Shown: one piece after another, positions 4,446-44,157 of the stretch
Numbering within the stretch: position 1 is the stretch's first letter
Layout of the letters: each line of letters starts with the position of its first letter
DNA from: Escherichia phage vB_EcoS-IME253
Strand: one strand, 5' to 3'
Length of the DNA: 46,717 nucleotides
Sequence record: NC_047810.1
Notes under the pieces: generated by a model
Told to the model about the DNA's origin: nothing
What the model saw: only the letters and a program-made list of their open reading frames with translations
Databases searched by the model: none
Made by a program: the position numbers and the translations under genes

Positions 4446-6029
4446 TCACCCCAACAGTCGTGGATTAATGTAAACTTTATCACCAATCAGGCACGTATAG
4501 TTTTTCTCATCAAGCATTGGCAGTAAGTGATCTTTAATCTTTGTCATTACACCAGCCTGAGCTTCGAACGGCTTAACCTTACGAGCCGCTTCATATAGAG
4601 AACGAATACCCACTACTCCTTTACCGTTCTTGCCTTGCTTAATTAGAATATCAATCAGCTTATTCATCTCGGCATTGTCGCCAGCGTGACCAGCGGCGTT
4701 TGCAGATGACAGATAAGTCTTGCTAAGTTCATGGAACATAATTACAGCTTCTTGCATGGTGTCGAGCTCGATCTCTCTGGACTTCTGTGGACTACCGCCA
4801 TTTGGGTTGAACCAGTTGCGCACAGTGTGAAGAACAGCTGCAATCCTTATGGCCTGCTTATCGAACTTACCCAACGCGCCGCGCAACATTGTATGTGAAT
4901 ACTTCCCGCCATCTGCAAGGTGAGGTTCCATCTCCTGACGCGCACGGTTGAGGTATTTCATCGCTGAGTTGCTTACTGTCAACTTAACATCTTGCTCGTT
5001 CATGATCTCATGAACAAGACGGAAGTAGTCGGCCTTCAGGCCACCATCAATTGGCTCGTAAGTTGAATTTCCATTCTCATCAACGAATACACGCTCACCC
5101 AGGAATGACTTTTCACGGACGAGAAGGAAACGCTCCGATACACCGATACCACGTGCGCCAGCGTTCATTATCGCGTTTATTGTCTCGTCCTGCGCAATTA
5201 CAGAGATACAACCCATAGCAACGAAACTCATGTTGTTCTCTGCATTAGCACGCGCGATAGATACGTTACCAGCATCCCATGCCTTGAGTACGAGTTCGCT
5301 GTTCGTTTTCTTCGAGCCGTCACCATAAGTCATGCCAAGCAGTGAGTTCACGCTCGTCGCCTCATCCGAGATGACCGCGAAGTTGCCCTGGCGGTTGTTT
5401 ATTCGCGCAAGACCTTCCGGCGTGGTATCTGATACAGGGAAAACGATATCGCATAGTCTCTCGAGCTTTTCCTCAAGTTCCTCCTTTTCCTCAAAGAGAG
5501 ACGCCATCTCTGATGGAGATTTTTCCTGCTTCATCTCTTTTGATAACGCAGATAGTTTGGCCATAATCTTTTTACGCTCATGCTTTCGCACTTCATTAAG
5601 CCGCTCAGTCTCAGCAATCATTGGAGCAATTGAAAGTGAGTTAATTGCTGATTTACCAGTCGATGGTGGCTGGCTTGTCACGACATAAAGAGAAGTAGGC
5701 TGCTGAGTTCCATGATACTCAACTGTAAATCGGCCTAGCATCGCAGCGGAAATACACCCCAGAAAGTGCATATAAGCTGACGACTCAGGGAACTGAACGG
5801 AACGGGCAATATTGGCTGACAGCTTACCAACAACATCAATGTCATTACCGAGTGAGATTACTGGATACTTGTCATTTGCAGCATCAATCTCGACAGGTGC
5901 TTTCCAGAATGATTGAGACTGGCGATAGCCATTGGCATTAATGGCGACGCGCAGGGGCGGGAGGTTGTCCGCGGCTGCAATTGCCATAACCTGTTCAACA
6001 GATAGTTTATCTTCGTTGAAATCAAACAT
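4446..6029 (-). CDS. large hypothetical protein (527 aa) with P-loop-like STGKS segment and coiled-coil region
   Basis: Long ORF with RBS aaggag; N- and C-terminal segments homologous to the 174-aa product of 8721..9245. Confidence 0.6.
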   Translation of the reverse strand: MFDFNEDKLSVEQVMAIAAADNLPPLRVAINANGYRQSQSFWKAPVEIDAANDKYPVISLGNDIDVVGKLSANIARSVQFPESSAYMHFLGCISAAMLGRFTVEYHGTQQPTSLYVVTSQPPSTGKSAINSLSIAPMIAETERLNEVRKHERKKIMAKLSALSKEMKQEKSPSEMASLFEEKEELEEKLERLCDIVFPVSDTTPEGLARINNRQGNFAVISDEATSVNSLLGMTYGDGSKKTNSELVLKAWDAGNVSIARANAENNMSFVAMGCISVIAQDETINAIMNAGARGIGVSERFLLVREKSFLGERVFVDENGNSTYEPIDGGLKADYFRLVHEIMNEQDVKLTVSNSAMKYLNRARQEMEPHLADGGKYSHTMLRGALGKFDKQAIRIAAVLHTVRNWFNPNGGSPQKSREIELDTMQEAVIMFHELSKTYLSSANAAGHAGDNAEMNKLIDILIKQGKNGKGVVGIRSLYEAARKVKPFEAQAGVMTKIKDHLLPMLDEKNYTCLIGDKVYINPRLLG

Positions 6030-6098
6030 TACTTTTACTCCTTATTGGTGCGCCAATGTTAACGCACCTATATTAAATCCGATTGTCGATAAATTCCA

Positions 6099-6326
6099 TT
6101 AATACATTGAAAGCAAAACATAGCCAGGAAGATAAGATGAAACATCTGCTATATGTAAAACTTCCTTGATGACAATCCTTCCTGTGTATTCGCCATCTTC
6201 AAACTCTTTAAGTATTAGCTTGTCTCCTATAGAGAAATTTCTATCATTTTTTCTAAGTTCAGCTAACTTAAGGCCAGCCTCAACTGGTTCGAAATGGATT
6301 GGCGATATCTTTAGCTCATGAATCAT
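6099..6326 (-). CDS. small protein, possibly ASCH/PUA-like fold
   Basis: 75-aa ORF with RBS gagg; weak resemblance to ASCH-like small proteins (ELKI..FE.V..G.K..E.RKNDR). Confidence 0.35.
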   Translation of the reverse strand: MIHELKISPIHFEPVEAGLKLAELRKNDRNFSIGDKLILKEFEDGEYTGRIVIKEVLHIADVSSYLPGYVLLSMY

Positions 6327-6676
6327 TTGTATTGCGCCTCAAATAGGTAGTCACCGCAAACTGTAACAAAGCCAACCTCTTCGTCACGATATAGCTGCCA
6401 GGCGCTACCCTCTTTATCGTAAATGTATCCAGCGCACTGTCCAAGCCCGGCATGGAGATCTACTTGATACCGCTTCCCTTCAGTAAAGTATTTTCTAATA
6501 GATGAGCGATGATTGACCTTTGTGCAATAAATTGTCTTGGTCTTAATATACTTGCCGCGCTCTTCCAGGTTAATCCATTTTCCATCTTTCTTGATTTGCT
6601 CTACACCATCTTTAATGCGAGCTTTGTATAATACGTTTTCGTTGCTGATCCAGTTTTTAGTAATTGTAGTAGTCAT
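6323..6676 (-). CDS. hypothetical protein (117 aa from ATG 6676)
   Basis: ORF track start at 6700 is a GTG; ATG at 6676 is preceded by caacgaagagag, like other genes here. Confidence 0.45.
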   Translation of the reverse strand: MTTTITKNWISNENVLYKARIKDGVEQIKKDGKWINLEERGKYIKTKTIYCTKVNHRSSIRKYFTEGKRYQVDLHAGLGQCAGYIYDKEGSAWQLYRDEEVGFVTVCGDYLFEAQYK

Positions 6677-11633: not shown

Positions 11634-11711
11634 GCTCTGCTAGCTCAACAGGATAGCAGCAACGACCTTCTAAGTCGTAGGTTACTGGTTCGAATCCAGT
11701 GCGGAGCGCCA
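11634..11711 (+). tRNA. tRNA-Arg (anticodon UCU)
   Basis: Hand-folded cloverleaf: acceptor GCUCUGC/GCGGAGC, D-loop with GG, anticodon stem ACGAC/GUCGU with loop CUUCUAA, T-arm ACUGG-UUCGAAU-CCAGU, discriminator G and encoded CCA. Confidence 0.75.
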
Positions 11712-23482: not shown

Positions 23483-26458
23483 ATGGCAACAAATGAATTA
23501 GCCGGAATCACACTAGCCGTAGACGTCTCGCAGGTAGACAGAGGTACACAGTCCCTGCGGAAGTTCAGGCAGGCAAACCAGCAGGCCGCTTCCGGCATTA
23601 GTGAGTTCGTCAACGCCGAGCAGGTTGCAAAGAATCAAGCCAGAGACACAGCTCGCGCACTGGCTGAACAGCAATCATCTTTGGCTAAATTGCAAACGGC
23701 TATTGACCCAACTGCGGCAAAGTTCCGTAAACTCCAGGAGGCTGCTGTAGGTCTTGATAAGGCTTTCGCGGCTGGAGTAGTTCCTGATGAGGAGTTTTTC
23801 CGCTTAGGTGAGGCGCTTGAAACGCAGAACGCAAAACTTGCTCGTTCACGTGCGGCACTAACTGAAGAGGGTAGAGCGGCGGCGCAAGCTGCAAAGGATA
23901 AGGCAAAGGCAAAGGCTGAAGCGGATAGATTCATTGCATCACTTGAGCGTCAGGCTCAGGCGGCAACATTGACGCGAGAGGAGTACCTAAAGTTACAAGC
24001 GGCCCAGCTTGGCGTAAGTTCTCAGGCGGCGCCTATTATTGACAGAATCGCCGATGCATCACGGAAGGCAAACACCCAGCTAATTGCTCAGAGCAAGGCC
24101 TTTCAACGCTCTGGCTTAAGCGCAGGTCAATACAAGGCTGCAATCTCTCAATTGCCAGCGCAGATTACAGATATTGGGACATCACTTGCTGGCGGCATTC
24201 CGATTTGGCTTATTGCAATTCAGCAAGGTGGACAAATTAAGGATGCATTTGGAGGTATTGGTAACACATTTAGTTTTGCGCTTGCTGCTTTAAACCCGTT
24301 CAACGTAGCAGTTGGGGTTCTCGGTGGCGCGCTTGTTGCTTTAGGCGTCGGTGCTGCGCAGGCTGAAAGTGAATTCAGGGCGTTAAACTCCGCCATTGCG
24401 TTCTCAAACAACTCCACAATCGCATCAATCTCGCAGGTTAGAGAGTTGGTTAGCTCTGTTTCTGATGCCACTGGTGCAACCAGAGGACTTGTGACTAGCA
24501 TCGCAACAAGCCTTGTTGAGCAAGGAAACCTTACGCTAACGCAGATTGACAAGATTACTAAATCAACAGCCAGATGGGCTCAGTTGACAGGTAAGGATGC
24601 AAAGGAAATTACTGGTTACTATAACCAGATTGCGAGCGACCCAATTCAAGGACTTGCTGATTTAGACAAGAGGTTTAACTTCCTTACACAGGGGCAGTTA
24701 ACAACAATTGAAAGATTGAGAGAGACTAGGGGTGAGGTTGAAGCCGTAACTGCTGCTATTGATATATTTAGCAAATCACAAGAGGCAAACCTTAACGATA
24801 TTGCAGCCCAGCTTACTCCTCTTGAATTGGCCTGGAATGACTTCAGGAAGTACATATCTGATGTATGGGATGCAATTAGTCGCAGAACGGTTGGGGCGCT
24901 AAACCTGTTTGTTGACGTAATCGCCGGAACAATTGAGCAAATTAGGGTCTTCATCAACCAGGGTGATGTGCTGATTGGTGAATTCGTAATTAGCGCAACA
25001 CAGGCACTGCAGAACATCCCCGGCCTTGATGGTGTTGGTGATGATGTTGTCAAGGGACAGCAGAAGATTATCGATGCCGCTAAGAAGCAAAACATTGAGC
25101 TAGAGAAGTCTATCAAGGAGCGCGATGCCAGAATCAGAGAAGGAGAACTTGGCTACGTTACTCGCAGAGAAAATCAGAATACCAATGAGCAGTCAGGCAC
25201 GGATGAGGAGTTTGCAAAAAGGAAGAAAGCGCTTCAGGATGAACTTGATGCGATCAAGAAGAGCAGGAAAGAAGAAAATGGTAGGGTTAAAGAGCAAAGA
25301 GACCTTACAATTGGTTACGAATCTGGCGTACTTGCACTACAGGCACAACTCAAGGTGCTTCAGGAAAACAGGGATATTGGCGCAGTAATAAGCAATGAGC
25401 GCAAGCAGTATCTTCAGGAGGTTGCAAAATTCCAGATTCTTGAGCAAAGGCAGCGTGATGGCTCAATAAAAAAAGAGCAAGCAAGACTTCTCATTGAAAA
25501 GGATAAAGTTCTTGAGTTGGCCAGGCAGAAGGCTGAGCTAGGTGATCAGATTGTTTTGCAAGAAAGAGCCAATAAGTTGGCTGAAGATAACCGCAAGAAG
25601 ATTCTTCAGATTAACAATGAGGCAAGCAATATTGATTTGGGTACTGGATTATCATCTCGTGAACTGCAAAGAGCCAAAGAGATTCAGGCTCTTCAGTCCA
25701 ATCAGGTCAATGCTGGTGGCTCTCTTGATGACGTTGATTTTCAGCAGCTACTGGAAGCAAGACGTAACTTTTATGCCCAGGAGGATGCGCTACGTGAAAA
25801 CTGGCTCGCTGGTGTTAATCAATCCTTTGCCAATTGGGCTGAGAGCGCGACGGATGCATTCTCAATTGCTGGAAGTTTAACCACAACAGTCTTTGAAGGC
25901 ATTACCGACCAGATTACAAACCTCGTAACAACTGGCGAAACAAACTTCAGAGAGTTTACTGTTAGCATCCTTAAACAGATTGCTAAGATTGCAACTCAGC
26001 TTCTTGTTGTAAAGGCCATCGAATCTAGCTTAAGTAGCTTCGGTGGTACTGGTGGCGCTATTGGATCGATTGCATCTGGCTTGGGTTTTGCTGGTGGCGG
26101 CTACACCGGCAATGGCGGCAAGTACCAACCGGCAGGAACGGTACACCGTGGTGAATTTGTATTCACAAAAGAAGCGACGAGCCGAATTGGTGTGAAAAAC
26201 CTTTACGCGCTAATGAAAGGTTACGCAAACGGCTGCGCTGTAGGTGGTCCTTCAGGCTATGCAAATGGGGGTTTGGTTTCTGGTGGAACAGATGTTAATG
26301 TTAGCGGAATAACTGTTAACGTTAATGGCGGTGTTGGTAGCGACCCAGAACAAGCCAAAGCATTGCAGAGTGGCGTTAAGGCAATCGTAGCGGAAGAGAT
26401 TGCTCAGTCCTTCCAGCAAGGAGGAAAAGCGTATGCCTATCTGAGAGGTTTTAACTAA
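23483..26458 (+). CDS. tail tape measure protein
   Basis: 991 aa, coiled-coil rich with Gly-rich C-terminal part; downstream of G/G-T chaperones. Confidence 0.8.
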   Translation: MATNELAGITLAVDVSQVDRGTQSLRKFRQANQQAASGISEFVNAEQVAKNQARDTARALAEQQSSLAKLQTAIDPTAAKFRKLQEAAVGLDKAFAAGVVPDEEFFRLGEALETQNAKLARSRAALTEEGRAAAQAAKDKAKAKAEADRFIASLERQAQAATLTREEYLKLQAAQLGVSSQAAPIIDRIADASRKANTQLIAQSKAFQRSGLSAGQYKAAISQLPAQITDIGTSLAGGIPIWLIAIQQGGQIKDAFGGIGNTFSFALAALNPFNVAVGVLGGALVALGVGAAQAESEFRALNSAIAFSNNSTIASISQVRELVSSVSDATGATRGLVTSIATSLVEQGNLTLTQIDKITKSTARWAQLTGKDAKEITGYYNQIASDPIQGLADLDKRFNFLTQGQLTTIERLRETRGEVEAVTAAIDIFSKSQEANLNDIAAQLTPLELAWNDFRKYISDVWDAISRRTVGALNLFVDVIAGTIEQIRVFINQGDVLIGEFVISATQALQNIPGLDGVGDDVVKGQQKIIDAAKKQNIELEKSIKERDARIREGELGYVTRRENQNTNEQSGTDEEFAKRKKALQDELDAIKKSRKEENGRVKEQRDLTIGYESGVLALQAQLKVLQENRDIGAVISNERKQYLQEVAKFQILEQRQRDGSIKKEQARLLIEKDKVLELARQKAELGDQIVLQERANKLAEDNRKKILQINNEASNIDLGTGLSSRELQRAKEIQALQSNQVNAGGSLDDVDFQQLLEARRNFYAQEDALRENWLAGVNQSFANWAESATDAFSIAGSLTTTVFEGITDQITNLVTTGETNFREFTVSILKQIAKIATQLLVVKAIESSLSSFGGTGGAIGSIASGLGFAGGGYTGNGGKYQPAGTVHRGEFVFTKEATSRIGVKNLYALMKGYANGCAVGGPSGYANGGLVSGGTDVNVSGITVNVNGGVGSDPEQAKALQSGVKAIVAEEIAQSFQQGGKAYAYLRGFN

Positions 26459-26501
26459 TAGCACTAAATGGTAAAGCCAAAAGGATTTGGCTTGCTACAA
26501 T
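26458..26501 (+). promoter_or_regulatory. palindrome-plus-hexamer element (copy 10, variant)
   Basis: atagcactaaatggtaaa after TAA of tape measure gene; TACAAT 26496-26501 (22-nt spacer); next ATG 26530 (HNH). Confidence 0.4.
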
Positions 26502-26529
26502 TAGTGAAAATTAACATGAGGTTTAAAAG

Positions 26530-27000
26530 ATGAACTGGAATTATGTTTTTGAGTATAGAGAGGGTGTTCTTTATTGGAAGGTAAAACCAGCCATACAATA
26601 CAATATTGGCGATGTTGCTGGTTTCTTTTGTGAAAAGAGAGGTTACATAATCGTTCAATACAGGCGTGTAAAGGTAATGGCCCATAGGGTTGTATGGGAA
26701 ATGTTTAATGGAAGAATAGCTGATGACATGGAAATTGATCACATTGACCACTCTAGAAAAAACAACAACATATCAAACCTAAGACTGGTAACGAAGAGTG
26801 ATAACATGAAAAACAAAAGCATGTACTCATCAAATAAAACTGGCGTTGTCGGGGTTAGTTACTGCAAAACAAAGAAAAAATTTATATCAAAGATAGGTAA
26901 GAGAATTCTATTAACAACAAGCAATTTTGAAGAGGCTGTAAAAGCGAGAAAAATCGCAGAGATAGCCCTTAATTATCACAAAAATCACGGGAGTAAATAA
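26530..27000 (+). CDS. HNH homing endonuclease with AP2-like domain
   Basis: YWK..HR..WE...EIDHIDH..NNN..NLR.V..SDN motif; inserted between tape measure and tail tip gene M. Confidence 0.65.
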   Translation: MNWNYVFEYREGVLYWKVKPAIQYNIGDVAGFFCEKRGYIIVQYRRVKVMAHRVVWEMFNGRIADDMEIDHIDHSRKNNNISNLRLVTKSDNMKNKSMYSSNKTGVVGVSYCKTKKKFISKIGKRILLTTSNFEEAVKARKIAEIALNYHKNHGSK

Positions 27001-27001
27001 T

Positions 27002-27352
27002 ATGGCTCTAGATACGTTTAATTTTTGTACTCAGGTTCAGAGTGGCGGCGGCTCATTTACCAACGCAAGCAACGTGAGGAGTGTTTCATTCGGTAATGGC
27101 TACACCCAAATTGGAACCGGAGGCTACAGAACTAACAAGCGCACTTACAACATGACCTACACCAACACTAACTGGAAGGAAGTGTTAGACTTCTGTTTTG
27201 CGCACATCATTACACCTTTTGCGTGGACCACGCCACAAGGCGATACATCAATGTTTGTTATTCAGCAGGATAGCATTAGCGTCACACCACTCAGTAAGGA
27301 AGTTCAGACTGTAAATATGCAATTCGTAGAAGTTTTTAGCTCAATGCGTTAA
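27002..27352 (+). CDS. minor tail protein M (lambda gpM-like)
   Basis: 116 aa; position and order M-L-K-I-J. Confidence 0.6.
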   Translation: MALDTFNFCTQVQSGGGSFTNASNVRSVSFGNGYTQIGTGGYRTNKRTYNMTYTNTNWKEVLDFCFAHIITPFAWTTPQGDTSMFVIQQDSISVTPLSKEVQTVNMQFVEVFSSMR

Positions 27353-27355
27353 ACT

Positions 27356-27380
27356 AAGCCCCATTAGGGGCTTTTTTTAT
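27356..27380 (+). terminator. rho-independent terminator fused to gene L RBS
   Basis: hairpin agcccc-atta-ggggct, T7, then attggagaaatatATG. Confidence 0.6.
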
Positions 27381-27391
27381 TGGAGAAATAT

Positions 27392-28147
27392 ATGTTAAGT
27401 CCAAAGTTTGAAAATCAGTTGCAAAGCCTTTTCCCTGGAGAGATTGTGACTCTAATTCAGGTTGACGGCACGTCGTTTGGTTCTCGCGTTTACAATTTCC
27501 ACAATGAGAACATTTCATACACACCTGAAGAAATCATGCTAGCCCAAATGAATGGCGAGCCACTACCAGAGAAAACCATCACCTTTCGTGGTGAAGAGTA
27601 TGGCCCCAGACCTTTTGGTATCTCGGGCATCAATATGACCTCTGACGGCAAAGCCAACAAAGTGACGCTAACGGTGTCAAACGTAGACCAGCGCATTAGC
27701 GCATTGATTCGAACATACAACGGACTTGTTAAAGCTAAGGTTACCATCTGGATTACTACGCGAGATAACATCAATGAAGACGGAAGCATTGCTGATGGGG
27801 ATTATCGCAGATTCGTTTACTTCATTGAGCGACCTAAGCAGGTTGATTACAAGACGGCATCGTTTGAGCTAAGTAGCCCGATGGATATGGATGGTATTTA
27901 CATTCCAGCAAGACTTGTTCAGTCTGTTTGCTACTGGGCTTCAAGGGGCTGGTATCGCAGCGGTAATGGTTGTGCTTATGCTGGTAATAGATACTTCAAT
28001 AAGGATGATGAGCCAGTGTCAGACCCTTCATTGGATTTCTGCGCCGGAACGGTAAATAGCTGCAAGATTAGGTTTGGTGAGAATAATCAGTTGGATTTCG
28101 GTGGCTGCGCTGCAGCAAGTCTTCAGGCTAAAGCCAATCAATCATAA
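27392..28147 (+). CDS. minor tail protein L (lambda gpL-like)
   Basis: About 250 aa with C-terminal Cys cluster; ATG 27392 with ggag (track start is TTG). Confidence 0.6.
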   Translation: MLSPKFENQLQSLFPGEIVTLIQVDGTSFGSRVYNFHNENISYTPEEIMLAQMNGEPLPEKTITFRGEEYGPRPFGISGINMTSDGKANKVTLTVSNVDQRISALIRTYNGLVKAKVTIWITTRDNINEDGSIADGDYRRFVYFIERPKQVDYKTASFELSSPMDMDGIYIPARLVQSVCYWASRGWYRSGNGCAYAGNRYFNKDDEPVSDPSLDFCAGTVNSCKIRFGENNQLDFGGCAAASLQAKANQS

Positions 28148-28170
28148 AAAAGGCCCCGAAAGGGGCCAAA
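28146..28170 (-). terminator. rho-independent terminator for the antisense Rha-like gene
   Basis: hairpin ggcccc-gaaa-ggggcc with A-run on plus strand (T-run on minus). Confidence 0.55.
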
Positions 28171-28171
28171 A

Positions 28172-28714
28172 TTACCATCCAAGAGTTAACTGTGCTTCCT
28201 TGTAAAGGTTCTCCATTTCTTCTTTCCGCTGCTTCTTGACCCTCTTCCACTCAGATAGTGTCTTTCCGCAACTGCTAGCAATCTCAACCTCTGACTTTAA
28301 CGTTCCGATTAACTCATTGCATTTCTGCATTACTGATTTATTTTCTTCTTTATACTCCTCTTTAAGAATTCGCTCCATTTCGTTAAAAGCATTAATGTAA
28401 GCTTCCTTCCACTTTGCTGCCTCCTTTCCGGTAAAGCCCATTGCTAGGAATGAGAAACCATCACGTGTAATGTCATAGCAATCTAACTTCTTGTTTTGCT
28501 TGGAAATATAAGATGAGGGCCGAAAATTAGGCTCTCTAAATTCTTCGCTACAATCAAGTCCTCGAATAGCATCAAGCACGTGCTTGTGCGACTTACCAAA
28601 CTTTTCTGAAACATCCTTTGATGTGACTGTAATGCGACCATCTTTGCCTAAAGATACTAAATCGTTCATAATATACCTACCTGGTGAGTTGATTATTTGT
28701 TTATGGAGATTCAA
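28172..28714 (-). CDS. Rha-family phage regulatory protein (antisense to tail operon)
   Basis: N-terminus LVSLGKDGRITVTSKDVSEKFGKSHKHVLDAIR..FREPNF matches Rha-domain pattern; own terminator. Confidence 0.5.
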   Translation of the reverse strand: MNLHKQIINSPGRYIMNDLVSLGKDGRITVTSKDVSEKFGKSHKHVLDAIRGLDCSEEFREPNFRPSSYISKQNKKLDCYDITRDGFSFLAMGFTGKEAAKWKEAYINAFNEMERILKEEYKEENKSVMQKCNELIGTLKSEVEIASSCGKTLSEWKRVKKQRKEEMENLYKEAQLTLGW

Positions 28715-28765
28715 ATATAAAACTCCTAATAGGATTTGTCAAATCTTAAAATCATAGAGGTGAAG

Positions 28766-29524
28766 ATGTTAACACCAAAAGTTAAACTGGAAATCTTCCA
28801 GCACGCAAAAGAAGTTTACCCGCACGAATGTTGCGGGGTTGTCACGCAGAAAGGTCGCGCGCAGAAATACCACAGAATCAAGAACGCCAGCAAAGACCCA
28901 GAGAATGAATTCATCCTTGATTCAAATGAGTATGCAGACGTTCTCTTTGAGTTGGCTCACAACGAGTCAATTGTTTATGTAGTTCACTCTCATACAGGCG
29001 ATGGAGCCACAACAAGACCAAGCCCAGCGGACATTTGCAGCTGCAATGAGTGCGAGATTCCTTACGTTATCGTCAGCATTCCGGAAGGAGACATGCGGAT
29101 CCTTGAACCTTCAACCATGCCACTGATTGGTCGCCCATGGGGTCTTGGTAGCTTTGACTGCTGGGAGTTGGTAATGGCATTTCACAAGAAATACGGCGTC
29201 AAACTGAATGACTACCGCGTTAATTACCCGTGGTGGGAGAAGCGATACAATGAGAATATCTATGAAGACAACTGGATTAAGGAAGGATTTGAGCTAGTAA
29301 AAACTTCAGATATTCCTATTGGCTCAATGATTATGATGCAGGTTCAAAGTGAGGTGACAAACCACGCCGGAATCTATATTGGCAACAACAGATTCATTCA
29401 TCACCTTTATGGTAAAATGAGTTCAGTTGATATCTACTCCGATTACTGGCGAGAGCGCACTGTGCGAATCGTTCGCCATAAGGATTTACCAGAGGATGTA
29501 ATTTATGACCCAGAAACTGATTGA
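28766..29524 (+). CDS. tail assembly protein K (JAB/MPN plus NlpC/P60-like)
   Basis: HSHTGDGATTRPSPAD metalloprotease-like motif; ATG 28766 with RBS agaggtg. Confidence 0.7.
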   Translation: MLTPKVKLEIFQHAKEVYPHECCGVVTQKGRAQKYHRIKNASKDPENEFILDSNEYADVLFELAHNESIVYVVHSHTGDGATTRPSPADICSCNECEIPYVIVSIPEGDMRILEPSTMPLIGRPWGLGSFDCWELVMAFHKKYGVKLNDYRVNYPWWEKRYNENIYEDNWIKEGFELVKTSDIPIGSMIMMQVQSEVTNHAGIYIGNNRFIHHLYGKMSSVDIYSDYWRERTVRIVRHKDLPEDVIYDPETD

Positions 29525-30077
29525 TATTAAGTTAGGCTTGTCTCTAGGCCGCAAGTTTGGAAAGATTCACCAGATGGCAGTGAATAGCGTGCCAGAGGCT
29601 ATGCGAGCGCTTTGCTCTCAGATTCCTGCATTCAAGGAGTTCATGAGCAGCCACGTTGGGCAGAACACAAGATACGCAGTCTTTGTAGATGGTAAAAATG
29701 TGAACGAGCATCAAATCTCTGATTTTAGTGCCGTTCAGGAGATACGCATCTTGCCAATCCCGCAAGGCCGAAAGTCCGGCGGTTTGTTTCAGACAATTTT
29801 AGGTGCAGCGCTTATCACGGTTGGCATCTTCACTGGGCAGATTTATCTTGTTGGTGCTGGCGTATCTTTGGCAGCAGGTGGTATTTCCCAGCTACTCTCA
29901 CCGCAGGCAACTGGATTAAAGACCCAGAACAACCAAACAAGCAACAGAGCATCTTACGCATTTGGCTCGGCCGTGAACACTGTAGCTGCTGGTTATCCAG
30001 TTTGCCTTCCATACGGCTATCGAACTGTTGGCGGGTCTGTATTTAGTGCAGGCAGTTATAGTGAAGATATTTCTTGA
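29505..30077 (+). CDS. tail assembly protein I (lambda gpI-like)
   Basis: 190 aa with hydrophobic Gly-rich centre; overlaps K 3-prime end. Confidence 0.6.
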   Translation: MTQKLIDIKLGLSLGRKFGKIHQMAVNSVPEAMRALCSQIPAFKEFMSSHVGQNTRYAVFVDGKNVNEHQISDFSAVQEIRILPIPQGRKSGGLFQTILGAALITVGIFTGQIYLVGAGVSLAAGGISQLLSPQATGLKTQNNQTSNRASYAFGSAVNTVAAGYPVCLPYGYRTVGGSVFSAGSYSEDIS

Positions 30078-30134
30078 TAATTAAATTATTCTGCATTACA
30101 GTCACCTTAAGATTTACTCTTTTGGTGACTTAAA

Positions 30135-30623
30135 ATGCAAAAATTCGAGAATTACCTTTACGAGATTGATGGAAAGCTATACTGGAAGGAGGCGAGAAAC
30201 AACTCGGCCAAAATAGAGTCAGAGGCTGGATTTATTCATCATTCTGGCTATAGGTATGTTAAATTGAATGACAAACAGACTTCATCTCACAGGATTCTTT
30301 GGTACTTAAGAAATGGATTCAAGATGCCACCTAAAGGCATGGAGATTGACCATATAAATGGAAACAGGCTTGACAACTCAGCTAGTAACTTACGGATTGT
30401 ATCTTCATCGGTAAACTCAAAAAACAGGTCAAAAAGGTCAGATAACTCAAGCGGCGTTGCGGGAGTTGGATTTCATAAGTTAACTGGAACGTGGTGGGCT
30501 ACGATATCAATAAACAAAAAGAGAAAGCACTTGGGGCTATTCGTTGATTGGTTTGAAGCAGTGTGCGCCAGAAAGAGCGCTGAGAACTTAAATGGTGAGT
30601 ACACCTATAGACATGGTAAGTAA
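30135..30623 (+). CDS. HNH homing endonuclease with AP2-like domain (second copy)
   Basis: YWK..HR.LWY...EIDHINGNRLDN..SNLR.V motif; inserted between I and J. Confidence 0.65.
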   Translation: MQKFENYLYEIDGKLYWKEARNNSAKIESEAGFIHHSGYRYVKLNDKQTSSHRILWYLRNGFKMPPKGMEIDHINGNRLDNSASNLRIVSSSVNSKNRSKRSDNSSGVAGVGFHKLTGTWWATISINKKRKHLGLFVDWFEAVCARKSAENLNGEYTYRHGK

Positions 30624-30630
30624 AATCAGA

Positions 30631-30653
30631 ACCCGCCTGGCGCGGGTTTTTTA
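30631..30653 (+). terminator. rho-independent terminator after second HNH gene
   Basis: hairpin acccgc-ctggc-gcgggt followed by T6. Confidence 0.6.
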
Positions 30654-30703
30654 TTTACTGTAGAATGGCACAAATGATCAAAACAAACATGAGGCTTTGT
30701 GAT

Positions 30704-36026: not shown

Positions 36027-36716
36027 CTACTTATCTTTAAGTAGCAACTTGATATCAATTCCTAGATTATTCTCAATCAATCCAGTCAGTGCACCTACCT
36101 TTTCCTTAAGTGCGAAGCACTGTGTTTCATACTTGAATCTCAACTCCATCTCATCAGAGCGACTTGACCAGCACTGCCGAGCCTCGCACGCTAGCTCATC
36201 AATCTTCTTGTCAAGTTCCTTATCTGACAGGGTGATTTCAGTAATTCGCTGCTCAGCTACGATTCTCTGGATCAAGTGAGCATTCTGCGCTTGCAGGTAT
36301 CCATTCTTCATTCTTTCCTCTTTAAGTTCATCAATGCTTACCATCTGACTGATTACTTCCGCTTGCTTGTTGATGGTGCTTTGCATTTCTTTAAGCTTAG
36401 CAAGCACTGCGCGACGAACGAACTTTGATTCTCTCATCCCAATCAAAAGCATCTGTTCCATATTGAGCACTGGTGAGTTGATTGACTTTCTATAACCTCC
36501 TCTACCCTCACTCTTGATTACGAAACTTTCGTAGTCAAACTCAAACCCTTCAAGCTCATCCTCTATTCTCTCAACAAAGTCATTGTGTCGAACATTGGAC
36601 TCCCCAGCGATCAACCTCGCTGGGTTGATAACTTCATTTAAAAACTGATAACTATTCATTTTTACGTCTTCATTAAGTAATGCTAAGTTCATTTTCGTCT
36701 CTCTTTTGTTTTTCAT
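36027..36716 (-). CDS. putative regulatory protein (antirepressor-like N-terminal domain, coiled-coil C-terminus); start may be 36692
   Basis: First minus-strand gene downstream of reverse-oriented element 36797-36840; domain call is weak. Confidence 0.4.
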   Translation of the reverse strand: MKNKRETKMNLALLNEDVKMNSYQFLNEVINPARLIAGESNVRHNDFVERIEDELEGFEFDYESFVIKSEGRGGYRKSINSPVLNMEQMLLIGMRESKFVRRAVLAKLKEMQSTINKQAEVISQMVSIDELKEERMKNGYLQAQNAHLIQRIVAEQRITEITLSDKELDKKIDELACEARQCWSSRSDEMELRFKYETQCFALKEKVGALTGLIENNLGIDIKLLLKDK

Positions 36717-39710: not shown

Positions 39711-42614
39711 TTAAATCAATTTAACAGATCTTAACTGATTACCAGAAGTTGTAGATATTGTTGTTGAACTAACTAACGTCCCAGACAATGCAAACGAAAT
39801 AGCTCCAGTCGATGAGGTTCCAGTAGCAAACCTTTGAGGTGAATCGCTTATAACACTTATCTTATTTGCTGTAAAAGTATTAGTGCCAGAAAAACCAGTA
39901 GTTACAACCAAATCCTGATTGAGTCTAAATCCAAATCCAACAGTAACAGAGGTTGACTCTTTCACAGGAATGTTAAGCCCATTTAGACGCACACCTGAGA
40001 TATCAAAGAAATCACAAGAAGAAAGAAGCGCCATTCTTGAAATGCCTGTTGTTATTGGTAGCGTACTCTGAGACTGTCCATTGAAGTTACATACAAATCT
40101 TGTGTTAATGAAACTAATATCATGATCAACAGAGCCATCAACCGGAGAGGTCGTACCAGATGTTGACTTAACAATACCGCCAACAAATTTTATTGCCACA
40201 GGTCCATTTGGGTCTGAACCATAGTAAGCTCTAAGCCTTTCAACATTACAATTAACCATGTAATAGCTCCCCCTCTGGTTTGTCTCAAATATAGGGTATC
40301 TCGAGCTTCCGACAGGTGAAGAGAGATCATATATAGAAACGTTAGGGTTATGAAGACTGTTAGCACCCATGAAAACGATATTATTTGATAAAATCCCCTT
40401 TATACTTATGTTGGTAGTAAACCTTCCAGTCAATGAGCTTTCAGAATTTGTCATGTCCGAGAATGGCCCCTTAAACCTTGAAAAATCAATAGTAAGTCCC
40501 AAGCTAGCAGATGAAGGGAAAGCCGACATGTTAACATCTGATATTGAAACGTCAGAAGGGAAAAGCAGCGCACCATCTCTACTTGAGTAGAATAAATTAC
40601 CAGGATGAGAACTGTAGTTTCCTGACTTGAAGTTAAGGCCCTTAATCCTAACTGAGTTAAACAGAGTGCTCTTTATTGGTGAGCCAGCTACAGGTCCATT
40701 TCCTTCATAAGAAATTCCATTTATCAAACCCGTCCCGGTCAGGCTAGTACTTCTTGTGCCTGTAAAAGTAATGTTATCCATGTAAAGGTTTCCGTCAAAG
40801 AAACCTCCAGCGTCCGCCCTTGTTGTTATGATATTCCCATTCGTATATCTAGACGCATTAAATGCACTATCCCTTATATGCAAATCGCCAAGACCAGTAA
40901 CAACAACACCACGGGCACCGATATTGCAGTTTTCAATCTTGAGGTAGTTATGAAAAGGCATGTGAAAGTCAATTCTACTTAGATCACAATTTTCAAAAGT
41001 TACGTTTGCGCAGTTGTTACTACCATTTGCGCCCCATCCTTTACCGTTAACCCTTGCGTTCATAATCCTTACGTTCATTGATTCACCTATTGATAAGGCG
41101 TATGAGTAAAGCTCACCAGAAGAATCTCTTGCGTCTGCAACAGACTCGGCAAAAAGACCATCAACTGTGATATCATATGAGTTAGCTATTGCCAACCTTG
41201 TATCGCTAAACACTTGCGTTATCGGCTTGTTAATAAAGGAAATATCTTTTATTAACAACCTTGTAGAATTATTAACATAAACTATCTGATACCGTGTCGA
41301 AAGACTTTCATCTATAGTTAAACCCTTGATTTCCTGAGTTGTCTTGTTTATCTTCAAGGCTCTAACTGATGTAACATTATTTCCAAGATCATACTTCAGT
41401 GAGTTCTCCAGATAACCCCTATTGTAAACCCTATTGAGTTCAATTCTTTTCTGAACAGAATCCCTATATGTGTACATGTCCTGATTTGTATAAAAAACAA
41501 TAAAACAACCATCAAGGTCACGATTTTCAGATATAGAGTCGAACAAATTACTTCCAGCAGCTCTTGATTCATTAGACATGGAGTTAAAAGATGAAACAAC
41601 AGATGACGAAGCGTCATAAGTTGTAGGTTGCCCGTTGGTTATAGTTATCTGCCCGGTCCATGAGGATGATGGTTTTATAACAGAGCCTGTAAAATCAGCA
41701 CTCAATGAACCAATATCAATATAATCGGAACCAGAAACAAGAAAAACACCATCATTCTGCTTTATCTTTAGATTTTTGGATTTTGCGTAGTTTATCGCTC
41801 GATTTATACCTGAAATATCATTAGTAATACCATCACCAACACAACCAAAATCATAGAAACTAACATAACCTTTAGATCCTAGTTCAGACCACGAAGAATC
41901 ACCAATCCCACCAGAAGAATATGGTGTCGAGTTTTCCGGGACTGTCTTAGGTAGATCTCCCATCCATACGTATGACTTTGGCTTACCGGAGTCAAGCCAT
42001 ATCATTTGTTGATTTCTTGACTCTATTACACCTCCGGACTCAAATGATGAAATTAAGGCACCAGATAATGAAATTAAGGCACCAGATAATGATTCCGCAT
42101 AACCCCGTGCAGCTTGTTCTGATGACATTGCTAATCCAGCACTCGCTGCAGCAGAAGCCATATCACCTGCTACCTGGGCAGCATTCTGCGCAACCTGTGA
42201 TGACATGTTTACAACATCGCCATACTGATTGTTAACCTGTGTTACTTTAGATTCAAAATCATTAAAGTCAAAGTTGTTAAATGCATCAACTGCATCAGCA
42301 ACCTCAGTTTCACGTGACTGATAGTAACGAAGAGTCTCAGCAACATCTTGAGCTAATCCCTGAACGGTAATCCCATCATGAGCAAGAATAGCGTAACCAG
42401 TTCCAGCAGGAACAGTTTCAGAATTAGGGTTATAAACATTAATCTGCGTATCGCTGATGATCTCAGAGATGGTGTAAATTTTTACTGGCTCAGTTTTAAA
42501 TACAATGGTGGCACCTACGCGAATCAGTGTAAGCGGTGCTTTCCATGTTGTCCCGACACCAGTCACCTCGCCGTTTGCAGCTAATGATGCGGTTCCCAAG
42601 TCATAAATTGCCAT
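39711..42614 (-). CDS. tailspike / lateral tail fibre protein (beta-helix type, putative)
   Basis: About 970 aa, Ser/Thr/Asn/Gly-rich; N-terminal MAIYDLGTASLAANGEVTGVGTTW resembles conserved tail-fibre anchor domains; ATG 42614 inferred. Confidence 0.6.
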   Translation of the reverse strand: MAIYDLGTASLAANGEVTGVGTTWKAPLTLIRVGATIVFKTEPVKIYTISEIISDTQINVYNPNSETVPAGTGYAILAHDGITVQGLAQDVAETLRYYQSRETEVADAVDAFNNFDFNDFESKVTQVNNQYGDVVNMSSQVAQNAAQVAGDMASAAASAGLAMSSEQAARGYAESLSGALISLSGALISSFESGGVIESRNQQMIWLDSGKPKSYVWMGDLPKTVPENSTPYSSGGIGDSSWSELGSKGYVSFYDFGCVGDGITNDISGINRAINYAKSKNLKIKQNDGVFLVSGSDYIDIGSLSADFTGSVIKPSSSWTGQITITNGQPTTYDASSSVVSSFNSMSNESRAAGSNLFDSISENRDLDGCFIVFYTNQDMYTYRDSVQKRIELNRVYNRGYLENSLKYDLGNNVTSVRALKINKTTQEIKGLTIDESLSTRYQIVYVNNSTRLLIKDISFINKPITQVFSDTRLAIANSYDITVDGLFAESVADARDSSGELYSYALSIGESMNVRIMNARVNGKGWGANGSNNCANVTFENCDLSRIDFHMPFHNYLKIENCNIGARGVVVTGLGDLHIRDSAFNASRYTNGNIITTRADAGGFFDGNLYMDNITFTGTRSTSLTGTGLINGISYEGNGPVAGSPIKSTLFNSVRIKGLNFKSGNYSSHPGNLFYSSRDGALLFPSDVSISDVNMSAFPSSASLGLTIDFSRFKGPFSDMTNSESSLTGRFTTNISIKGILSNNIVFMGANSLHNPNVSIYDLSSPVGSSRYPIFETNQRGSYYMVNCNVERLRAYYGSDPNGPVAIKFVGGIVKSTSGTTSPVDGSVDHDISFINTRFVCNFNGQSQSTLPITTGISRMALLSSCDFFDISGVRLNGLNIPVKESTSVTVGFGFRLNQDLVVTTGFSGTNTFTANKISVISDSPQRFATGTSSTGAISFALSGTLVSSTTISTTSGNQLRSVKLI
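42047..42088 (-). repeat. perfect 21-bp tandem duplication inside tailspike gene
   Basis: atgaaattaaggcaccagata x2 on plus strand, encoding SLSGALI-SLSGALI in frame. Confidence 0.8.
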
Positions 42615-42637
42615 TGTGTAAAGTCTCCATTTGTAAA

Positions 42638-42655
42638 ATAGCACGAATTGCTAAG
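42638..42655 (+). promoter_or_regulatory. solo palindrome copy (no -10-like hexamer at expected spacing); candidate operator
   Basis: atagcacgaattgctaag about 30 bp upstream of the tailspike start codon (minus strand); expected hexamer position reads GGCATA. Confidence 0.35.
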
Positions 42656-42702: not shown

Positions 42703-43625
42703 TAGTTTAGCAAGTCTTTGGCTTTGTACACTTTCTTGCGTATTCCTGTTTTGAATGACTTCCCGTCATTAGGTATTACCACATCAACATTGCGATCATC
42801 AGCAACAGCGAGAATATCGATATCGCAATCGCGACAAGCAACTCTAAACTTTCGTGATTTGTCGCGGTGCATAACCATCTCCATGTTGTAACAGGAGAAA
42901 GCAACAAAAACCTCACGACACCCAGTAGCAATGTGAACACGTACGCCATCAATAAAATTATCAACAACATAAGTGTAGCCATCAACCTGCCTAGAACCAA
43001 TGACAGCAACAGAATCACGAGTGTAATCACCAGCTAGGAATTTAACATTTGAATCTCCATCAATAAACATTAAGTTGCAGAACTCATCACCAAGACCATC
43101 CTCGTAAACCATCGAGCATGGTACGGCATGAATCATTGAGCCATCCTTAGCTATGCCAACATCGAATCCATCATCAAGATAAATACCTTCATATGTTGTG
43201 AGTGGGCTTGATTCAACTCTTACAGTCCGATCCATGACTTCAAGAACTTTTTCATGATCTACCTGTGCGCCCATTTTGTAACGCTGAGTCCTTGATGCTT
43301 GCTTATTTGCCTTATTAACCACCTCTACAGGGATAAGGTTTAACCACTCAACGAGAACATCTATACATTCACTGAATGACTCCCCCCTCATCTTTTGTAA
43401 CCACAGAATTCCATCGCCTGAGCCACACTGGTTGCAGATAATGCCGCCATCACCTTCTTCGCTAACCTTGTTAGTCCATCGTGCTCGGTCGTTTCCTCCA
43501 CAATAAATACATGGCTGATGCTTTTTGGTCTGGAAGAATTTTGGGTCTGCGCCGCAGATATTGATAAGTGCCTTATCCCACAGGCCGCGCATTCTTGGTA
43601 AAACCTCTTTCTTATCGTAGTGCAT
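42702..43625 (-). CDS. DNA primase-like protein (zinc-binding N-terminus)
   Basis: CIYCGG...CNQCG cysteine pairs near N-terminus; adjacent to helicase module. Confidence 0.4.
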   Translation of the reverse strand: MHYDKKEVLPRMRGLWDKALINICGADPKFFQTKKHQPCIYCGGNDRARWTNKVSEEGDGGIICNQCGSGDGILWLQKMRGESFSECIDVLVEWLNLIPVEVVNKANKQASRTQRYKMGAQVDHEKVLEVMDRTVRVESSPLTTYEGIYLDDGFDVGIAKDGSMIHAVPCSMVYEDGLGDEFCNLMFIDGDSNVKFLAGDYTRDSVAVIGSRQVDGYTYVVDNFIDGVRVHIATGCREVFVAFSCYNMEMVMHRDKSRKFRVACRDCDIDILAVADDRNVDVVIPNDGKSFKTGIRKKVYKAKDLLN

Positions 43626-43683: not shown

Positions 43684-44157
43684 TTACTCTTTAGCTTTTC
43701 GTGCTGCCTCATTAGCGGCCTTGATCTTTCTCCATGAACGACACTCTGGTTTGGTTGCTAACTCGGACTCAGTAACCACACGCAGCATGTGACGCTTCTT
43801 GCACCGTAATGTCAGCGGCTTTCCGTTGCCGTCGAATTGCAGGTCTGGTCGGCAGAATGTAGCGCGAAAACCTTCTCCATTTCGTTTGTAGTAGTTGTGC
43901 GATAGCTGAGCACCACGTGCAGAAATCATACCACGCTTAAACCATTCCTCTACAGCCTGTGGTGTTACCTTTAACTGCTTTGCGATATTCGCCTTTGTGC
44001 CGAAGAAATCAAGAACAATCTCCAGTCGCGCGCGCAACCCTGCCCTTACTTCATCTTTCAAAACGTAGTAACCTGAAGGTCGTTTTCGTTGTTTTTTGTC
44101 TTCAGTGCGGACAGTTCCGTTATTACCGTTGATTGTTCTCTTGTCGACTGTATTCAT
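43684..44157 (-). CDS. HTH DNA-binding protein (putative transcriptional regulator)
   Basis: Basic N-terminus and HTH-like IAKQLKVTPQAVEEWFKRG; sits in divergent region. Confidence 0.4.
   Translation of the reverse strand: MNTVDKRTINGNNGTVRTEDKKQRKRPSGYYVLKDEVRAGLRARLEIVLDFFGTKANIAKQLKVTPQAVEEWFKRGMISARGAQLSHNYYKRNGEGFRATFCRPDLQFDGNGKPLTLRCKKRHMLRVVTESELATKPECRSWRKIKAANEAARKAKE

Follow-up and report, generated by a model that had tools for sequence, protein, structure and literature searches.

Why would an apparently virulent phage carry a gene for a regulator-like protein in the middle of its tail operon, and on the opposite strand? This question is raised by the 46,717-nucleotide (nt) sequence of Escherichia phage vB_EcoS-IME253 (NC_047810.1; the whole stretch is called the window below), where a gene of the Rha family sits between the tail tip genes L and K. 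The plus strand around it carries, in this order, the tape-measure gene, an HNH gene, M, L, K, I, a second HNH gene and J; M, L, K, I and J are lambda-type tail genes according to their Pfam and PHROG matches. A reading made from the letters alone, referred to here as the sequence-only reading, had placed a Rha-like gene antisense inside this otherwise co-directional operon, and the placement is confirmed, as the open reading frame (ORF) lies on the minus strand and the tail genes on the plus strand. We lean towards the view that the gene forms an autonomous accessory cassette, a moron, lodged between L and K of a virulent Rtp-like coliphage, and that it would encode an early, trans-acting DNA-binding regulator.

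The family assignment holds in profile searches. The protein matches Pfam Phage_pRha (PF09669) over the full model (positions 1-91) with E=1.8e-31 and 109 bits at a cutoff of 29.9, and its C-terminal part matches ORF11CD3 (PF10549) over model positions 1-53 of 54 (E=1.9e-8, 34.8 bits, cutoff 25). Matches to TIGR02681 in NCBIfam (92.4 bits, cutoff 45.95) and to PHROG 518, 'Rha-like transcriptional regulator' (E=1.8e-57), point in the same direction; PHROG 'anti-repressor' families match the protein only via the shared Rha domain. A search of 5.8 billion proteins returned 811 homologues at E<=1e-10, and the ratio of nonsynonymous to synonymous substitution rates (dN/dS) between cassettes is 0.02-0.2 with dS saturated, which together put the gene well beyond chance. 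The low ratio at saturated dS further argues that Rha is a functional protein that has long been resident in these phages. The feature as such is already known, since the identical gene is annotated in GenBank: the 'Rha protein' of phages phiA2-1 (OR861626, GP18), ZL19 (OM258170) and Rao1 (PQ221054, gp31) is 100% identical, and its gene is placed and oriented alike between L and K. In the literature on Rha in Drexlerviridae, ZL19, Rao1 and phiA2-1, no functional study was found.

The length of the protein needs a correction. The sequence-only reading had given 180 aa, counted from a TTG, which is also the start annotated in Rao1, whereas GP18 of phiA2-1 is annotated in GenBank from an ATG, with 165 aa. 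In what follows, L007-L012 and similar labels denote relative loci, P0002-P0010 homologous proteins, and percentages given for the latter are identities to the window Rha. Translation almost certainly begins at the ATG at 28669 and yields 165 aa, because the TTG at 28714 falls within the -10 hexamer of the promoter predicted for the gene itself, the 15-aa TTG extension is broken by stop codons in two of three related cassettes (L010 and L011), full-length homologues are nearly all about 155-168 aa long, and MNDLV are the first residues in 10 of the 10 closest copies. The position of the TTG and the interrupted extension led us to reject the longer form.

The gene appears to carry transcription signals of its own. 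Its predicted sigma-70 promoter is the sole match to at least 11 of 12 consensus positions on either strand in a scan of the whole window, and both hexamers are kept in the cassettes of L007, L010 and L011. When the window is compared with L007 in sliding steps, identity is 55-65% in L and K, steps up to 75-90% precisely at the cassette borders and peaks at the promoter and the 5' untranslated region (UTR); the UTR alone is 85-90% identical, against merely 55-65% in the flanking genes. Over the promoter, the UTR and the first 19 codons (28613-28765), nucleotide conservation exceeds that of synonymous sites in the remainder of rha. No stable RNA fold was predicted in the UTR (28670..28713).

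At the other end, a hairpin begins four nucleotides past the rha stop codon and reads, on the minus strand, GGCCCCTTTCGGGGCC followed by TTTTTT (-17.2 kcal/mol, z = -3.0). The terminator claimed in the sequence-only reading thus stands, as a prediction, and equivalent hairpins were found in L007, L010 and L011. The terminator is predicted to work one way only and to leave L-to-K read-through unstopped, because its hairpin, read on the plus strand, precedes AAAATT.

Whether the insert belongs to the regular equipment of the tail operon can be judged from its relatives. About 120 INPHARED records hold both L and K flanks, and Rtp-like phages display at least four states of the junction between them, most having a short spacer. 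The empty junction was read directly in PCEc3, where a 10-bp spacer, GGAGAGATAA, holds the ribosome-binding site of K. Sampled vB_EcoS phages and 2725-N35 have a similarly short gap, with a junction span of about 609 nt for a 600-nt query. A co-directional HNH endonuclease gene fills the junction in Rtp (rtp40), and another one does so in AHP42. Seven records, including ACG-M12, SU57 and BEK6, carry a co-directional 117-aa gene of PHROG 14592, 'virion structural protein'. The antisense Rha cassette is present in just three of the roughly 120 records (phiA2-1, ZL19 and Rao1). Presence or absence at the L/K junction is thus variable among relatives, and the absence of the cassette from most close relatives indicates that it is dispensable for tail assembly.

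These features agree with the proposal that the gene is an acquired moron. It is inserted between genes that are adjacent in related phages, its base composition differs from that of its neighbors (GC content 38.7%, as opposed to 45.0% for L, 44.5% for K and 44.2% for the genome), and a promoter and a terminator of its own are predicted, both kept in three other backbones. One classical trait, expression from a repressed prophage, is missing, as no integrase or repressor was found and Drexlerviridae are virulent. Judged by its sequence, the cassette is a moron by the classical criteria, lodged in an insertion hotspot to which homing endonucleases are drawn as well; it would work like a moron yet cannot be a lysogenic-conversion gene. 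The sequence-only reading had called an antisense cassette in a structural operon atypical. Its antisense position stands, but it is less atypical than claimed, given that the junction is a hotspot and that two further HNH inserts interrupt the same operon.

Those two inserts are HNH_3 homing-endonuclease genes, at 26530-27000 (+) in the tape-measure/M junction with 34.8% GC and at 30135-30623 (+) in the I/J junction with 40.3% GC; the former is absent from ZL19 and Rao1. The 117-aa junction gene is exemplified by gp34 of ACG-M12 (L004, 2328-2681) and also occurs in SU57, BEK6, ECH1 and vB_Ec-G8. It had no Pfam, NCBIfam or PADLOC match.

The wider distribution of the gene points at an old association with this junction. 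Homologues fall into tiers, with P0002-P0008 at 81-85% identity, P0009 and P0010 at 61-62%, and many more at about 55%. P0003 (84%), P0008 (81%) and P0010 (61%), the last of which is indexed in 48 blocks of the collection, are each encoded antisense between L and K, and so is every retrievable member of the clade at 61% or above (L007-L009, L010, L011-L012), always within a T1-like tail operon. From K to L, the shared layout comprises the K start, TTGACA-17-TAnAnT, a UTR of about 45 nt with TTGAATCTCCA.AAACAAA, a Shine-Dalgarno sequence, the gene, a GC hairpin with T-run, and the L stop. The same architecture recurs in four independent backbones (the window, L007, L010 and L011). The L011 backbone is that of E. 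coli T1-like phages of about 50 kb (BUCT-XGG-1, TH27, ESCO41; ~85% identity), and all isolates of that group are without the cassette. The idea of a recent or stray acquisition did not survive these comparisons: occupation of the same junction in diverged lineages and saturated synonymous divergence indicate that the cassette is old and shared by several (at least three) diverged T1-like lineages, rather than a recent one-off.

More distant relatives are found elsewhere. L or K neighbors were seen at none of about 100 loci of more distant Rha homologues. The examined homologues at about 55% head early or replication operons, where the next genes encode a replication initiator, DnaB, DnaC, DUF1064, a RecA-dependent nuclease or NinB. 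One such locus, L034, has a promoter region resembling that of the cassette, for which reason the promoter-plus-gene unit was probably captured from an early region such as that of L034. A neighbor-joining tree of 60 homologues does not make the two L/K-junction clades sisters. We give the shared non-coding architecture more weight than this tree, as intragenic mosaicism makes a single tree unreliable.

Evidence for such mosaicism and for exchange comes from comparing cassettes with their backbones. L007 and L010 share 88% identity in Rha and 42% in the tape-measure protein, and L007 and L011 show the reverse, with 82% in the tape-measure protein and 65% in Rha; the distances in L and K are about equal between all three. 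The Rha phylogeny disagrees with that of the backbone. Within the gene, L007 rha (6001-6498) is itself a mosaic, in which residues ~22-96 are 83-86% identical to L011 and the C-terminal ORF11CD3 part is of the window/L010 type, a pattern consistent with domain swapping between cassette variants. Differences inside the 81-100% clade are unevenly spread as well. Between the window and L007, 20 of 26 differing positions fall in residues 20-67 (helices 2-3 and the beta-hairpin wing), where nonsynonymous divergence (dN) is 0.25-0.36, and residues 68-165 are nearly invariant, with dN 0.00-0.06.

A breakpoint lies at the left edge of the cassette. Against ZL19 and Rao1, the window shows about 10-15% mismatches through M and L up to 28102; from 28103 to about 29700-29800, mismatches are absent in ZL19 and limited to one (28160) in Rao1. 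The near-identical block spans K, I and the I/J HNH gene and extends into J, with about a dozen mismatches in the 3' end of I past ~29700. This change of identity abutting the cassette reads as one recombination event.

An AlphaFold2 model of the protein, built from 60 homologues, places residues 10-100 above a pLDDT of 90, with a beta-alpha-alpha-alpha-beta-beta-alpha topology, and the N-terminal Rha domain is accordingly modelled as winged-helix-like. Long helices at 82-109 and 113-162 follow with lower confidence, and the ORF11CD3 region appears as a long helix of low confidence. From this topology and from what is commonly held about the family, DNA binding and dimerization through the C-terminal helices can be inferred, and only inferred, since no solved structure related by sequence was found and fold searches gave nothing significant, the top Foldseek matches being PadR/MerR-type winged-helix regulators at E ~0.2.

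Comparison with known systems helps to narrow down what the cassette may be. The moron concept reportedly goes back to a comparison of the lambdoid phages HK97 and HK022 by Hendrix and colleagues. Like those morons, the cassette is a single gene with its own predicted promoter and terminator, of deviant base composition, between genes adjacent in relatives. Lambdoid morons, however, are active in the repressed prophage, to the advantage of the lysogen, whereas this phage has no lysogeny module and the cassette is antisense to the operon; without such a module, its expression must occur during lytic infection. A similar comparison can be made with the free-standing HNH genes of T1-like phages, such as rtp40 at the same junction, which share the intergenic insertion, the patchy presence and the lower GC. 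In contrast to them, the cassette has the opposite orientation and a strong predicted promoter and terminator of its own, and no nuclease domain (HNH, GIY-YIG, LAGLIDADG or similar) was detected in the Rha protein with Pfam, PHROGs or NCBIfam, so that it is not a homing endonuclease.

The Rha proteins of phi80 and P22 (orf201) are the founding members of PF09669 and, by the Pfam description, extra genes in late operons. They share the Rha domain with the window protein and differ from it in their C-terminal parts, and both phages are temperate; P22 Rha is about 35% identical to the window Rha over 84% of the query. Their status as extra genes within late operons is also described in PMC4936722, which cites earlier work (Mozola & Friedman 1985; Henthorn & Friedman 1995) to the effect that phi80 and P22 Rha block phage growth in IHF-defective hosts. 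In Shiga toxin (Stx) 'Eru' phages, Rha proteins occupy the replication-module position of the O protein (PMC8951638). More broadly, Rha belongs with KilA-N, Bro-N, ANT, P22_AR, ORF6N and ORF11CD3 to the domain-shuffled proteins of the Bro network (PMC10111431). With Rha plus ORF11CD3, the window protein combines two domains of this shuffled set, and the mosaicism between cassette variants fits domain swapping of this kind.

The proposed course of events would be as follows. Host RNA polymerase would transcribe rha from the start of infection. Later, read-through of the tail operon across the cassette, which is needed for K, I and J, would collide with rha expression and damp it, making rha an early gene. 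The protein would bind DNA as a dimer and regulate in trans, as proteins of the Bro/Rha network are thought to do. Its likeliest targets would be foreign or host DNA or regulators, such as those of resident prophages, satellites or co-infecting phages, and not the phage's own core program. The cassette itself would spread, or be lost, by homologous recombination via the conserved ends of L and K when phages co-infect a cell.

Involvement in conflicts between phages, or between phage and host, is plausible in view of the IHF-host phenotype of phi80 and P22 Rha and of the regulatory and replication positions that Rha holds in Stx phages. The most far-reaching form of this idea would make the cassette a horizontally exchanged conflict module of virulent T1-like phages, always in the L/K junction, fired at infection from the strongest host-type promoter, with a recognition helix and wing (aa 20-67) that diversify and the rest frozen. 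It would reprogram prophages, satellites or co-infecting phages, or counter host defence, and give an edge in particular host backgrounds. We regard this extended form as speculative and rather unlikely.

The patchy distribution of the cassette could also be explained by a selfish hitch-hiker that brings the phage no benefit. The L/K junction would then be a homing-endonuclease target or a repair hotspot, and either occupancy of the site or linkage to the I/J HNH gene would lead to gene conversion into empty genomes. This scenario is nourished by the HNH gene at the same junction in Rtp, by those at the tape-measure/M and I/J junctions of this tail operon, by the near-100% block of the window, ZL19 and Rao1, which starts at most 45 bp from the left edge of the cassette and runs from K to J including the I/J HNH gene, and by the frequent fusion of Bro-network domains to nuclease domains in other phages (PMC10111431; bioRxiv 10.1101/2021.02.21.432181). 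We nevertheless consider it improbable. The Rha protein lacks a nuclease domain, L007, L010 and L011 have no HNH gene at the I/J junction, and the ZL19/Rao1 breakpoint is a single shared event that does not count as repeated evidence. Strong purifying selection on coding sequence and promoter across saturated synonymous divergence is, moreover, hard to square with a functionless passenger. If the protein does have a function, its sites might lie in the phage genome itself, where Rha would time early and late transcription or assist replication initiation. About 55%-identical homologues that are the first genes of operons with a replication initiator, DnaB or DnaC, and the O-protein position in the 'Eru' phages, speak for such a role. 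The unusual nucleotide conservation of promoter, UTR and first 19 codons suggests an operator, and the 19-nt start-region motif TTGAATCTCCATCAATAAA has a second copy at 43049-43067 (+), with 2 mismatches and antisense within the primase gene, where 0.02 copies are expected by chance. Yet this second copy has no visible promoter context, rha lies physically apart from the replication genes, and most phages of similar backbone are without rha, which can hence not be a core regulator; we doubt this explanation. An operator search in the genome found the spacer palindrome to be unique.

It is also conceivable that the DNA of the cassette matters more than its product. A strong head-on promoter and a hairpin could adjust how much of K, I and J is made, or when, in comparison with M and L, and the protein would be secondary. 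The sole sigma-70 match of at least 11/12 in the genome does face the operon, and conservation within the cassette is highest over promoter and UTR. About 95 nt upstream of K, the plus strand also has a conserved promoter-like site (TTGCCT-17-CATAAT, 28644-28672). This site, however, overlaps the rha start codon and the invariant MNDLV codons, and may be conserved simply because it is coding sequence. A 10-bp L/K spacer is enough for relatives to assemble tails, and purifying selection on the coding region is strong, its two-domain architecture being conserved. A purely cis-acting device thus appears very unlikely to us.

Several results also weigh against the reading that we favor, an autonomous cassette with an early DNA-binding regulator. 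Its promoter and terminator are predictions from consensus sequence only. No DNA or protein target was found, and the genome search for cassette motifs gave the single, unexplained second site described above. The structural searches, with no sequence-related solved structure and no significant fold match, belong to the same side. The Pfam scan detected Rha and ORF11CD3 only, and in the absence of ANT, KilA-C (P22_AR_C likewise) and P22_AR domains, which distinguishes the protein from the anti-repressors of the Bro network, it is not demonstrably an anti-repressor. None of the PADLOC defence models matches it. Donor searches were equally unproductive: the best match in 5426 complete E. coli genomes reached 74% over 109 nt, GTDB representative genomes gave merely Rha-domain matches of at most 61%, and neither set held a close relative, so that no donor or partner prophage can be named. 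IMG/VR matches were partial and at most 66%, and one metagenome scan with generic peptide patterns returned distant relatives only.

Features of the L/K junction and the Rha cassette in the window
Feature	Coordinates	Strand	Remarks
Tail tip gene L, left flank	27392..28147	+	PF05100, E=9e-45; start per GenBank annotation
Recombination breakpoint, left edge of cassette	28103..28147	.	last 45 bp of L; relative to ZL19 and Rao1
Predicted intrinsic terminator	28146..28167	-	6-bp GGCCCC/GGGGCC stem, TTTC loop, T6 run; hairpin 28167..28152
Rha cassette, whole insert from L stop codon to K start codon	28148..28765	-	618 bp; 10-bp spacer in PCEc3
ORF of 180 aa from TTG	28172..28714	-	within the interval 28146-28735 of the sequence-only reading
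Rha/ORF11CD3 coding sequence, 165 aa, ATG start	28172..28669	-	PF09669, PF10549, TIGR02681
5' UTR	28670..28713	-	conserved TTGAATCTCCA.AAACAAA motif and AGGTAGG Shine-Dalgarno sequence; identity to L007 in text
Predicted sigma-70 promoter	28714..28742	-	TTGACA-17 nt-TATATT; 11/12 consensus positions
Tail tip gene K, right flank, JAB and NlpC/P60	28766..29524	+	PF14464, PF00877; start per GenBank annotation

As they stand, these results change little, since three GenBank phage records already contain the gene under its name and accessory genes of the Rha/Bro type are common in phages. What they add is a picture of the T1-like L/K junction as a recurrent insertion hotspot, occupied by the Rha cassette, HNH genes, the 117-aa gene or nothing, and of the Rha cassette as an old, selected unit common to several diverged lineages. 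For phage engineering and therapy, the junction points to a naturally permissive site for cargo insertion, and the cassette flags a putative regulatory gene behind a strong promoter that is predicted to be constitutive. Should Rha act on prophages or competing phages, it would offer a tractable anti-repressor-like gene of a strictly virulent phage.

The window as a whole is a mosaic. Over the tail-tip region (26400-30700) it does not differ from Escherichia phage phiA2-1 (Drexlerviridae, Braunvirinae; 100% identity), and near-100% blocks are shared with phiA2-1 over 21.5-37 kb, with ZL19 over 18-25.7, 28.1-32.2 and 34-35.7 kb, and with Rao1 over 28.2-35.5 kb. Elsewhere identity is 75-91%, with 70-90% between the blocks of the 18-40-kb stretch, and the first 18 kb match best to BEK1-1, at 87.6%. 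The window in full has no match in INPHARED and, with its identity of ~100% to phiA2-1 restricted to 21.5-37 kb, is a different mosaic genome from that phage.

The observation that no integrase or CI-type repressor is present was upheld for the parts inspected: none is annotated in phiA2-1, near-identical over 21.5-37 kb only, and none was detected among ten large window ORFs scanned against Pfam. The sequence fits a virulent, Rtp-like phage of the Drexlerviridae/Braunvirinae. That a Rha-like gene should be curious in such a phage, as the sequence-only reading held, is not supported, as a second Bro-network gene in the window is common to most Rtp-like phages.

This second gene (36027-36716, minus strand, 229 aa) matches PHROG 8235, 'anti-repressor', with E=6e-83 and is annotated as KilA in phiA2-1. 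Its product is weakly similar to the Rha protein (BLASTP E=5e-4), and its homologues in most Rtp-like phages are 48-51% identical. Another minus-strand ORF, at 43684-44157 (157 aa), gave a sub-threshold P22_Cro-like helix-turn-helix match (26.9 bits, cutoff 30.2), the sole Cro-like signal seen. A 977-aa ORF with a Tail_spike_N domain (39711-42644, minus strand) has no counterpart in phiA2-1, where shorter genes are annotated, and is probably a swapped receptor-binding module. Finally, ARAGORN and Rfam agree on a tRNA-Arg with anticodon TCT at 11634-11711 on the plus strand.

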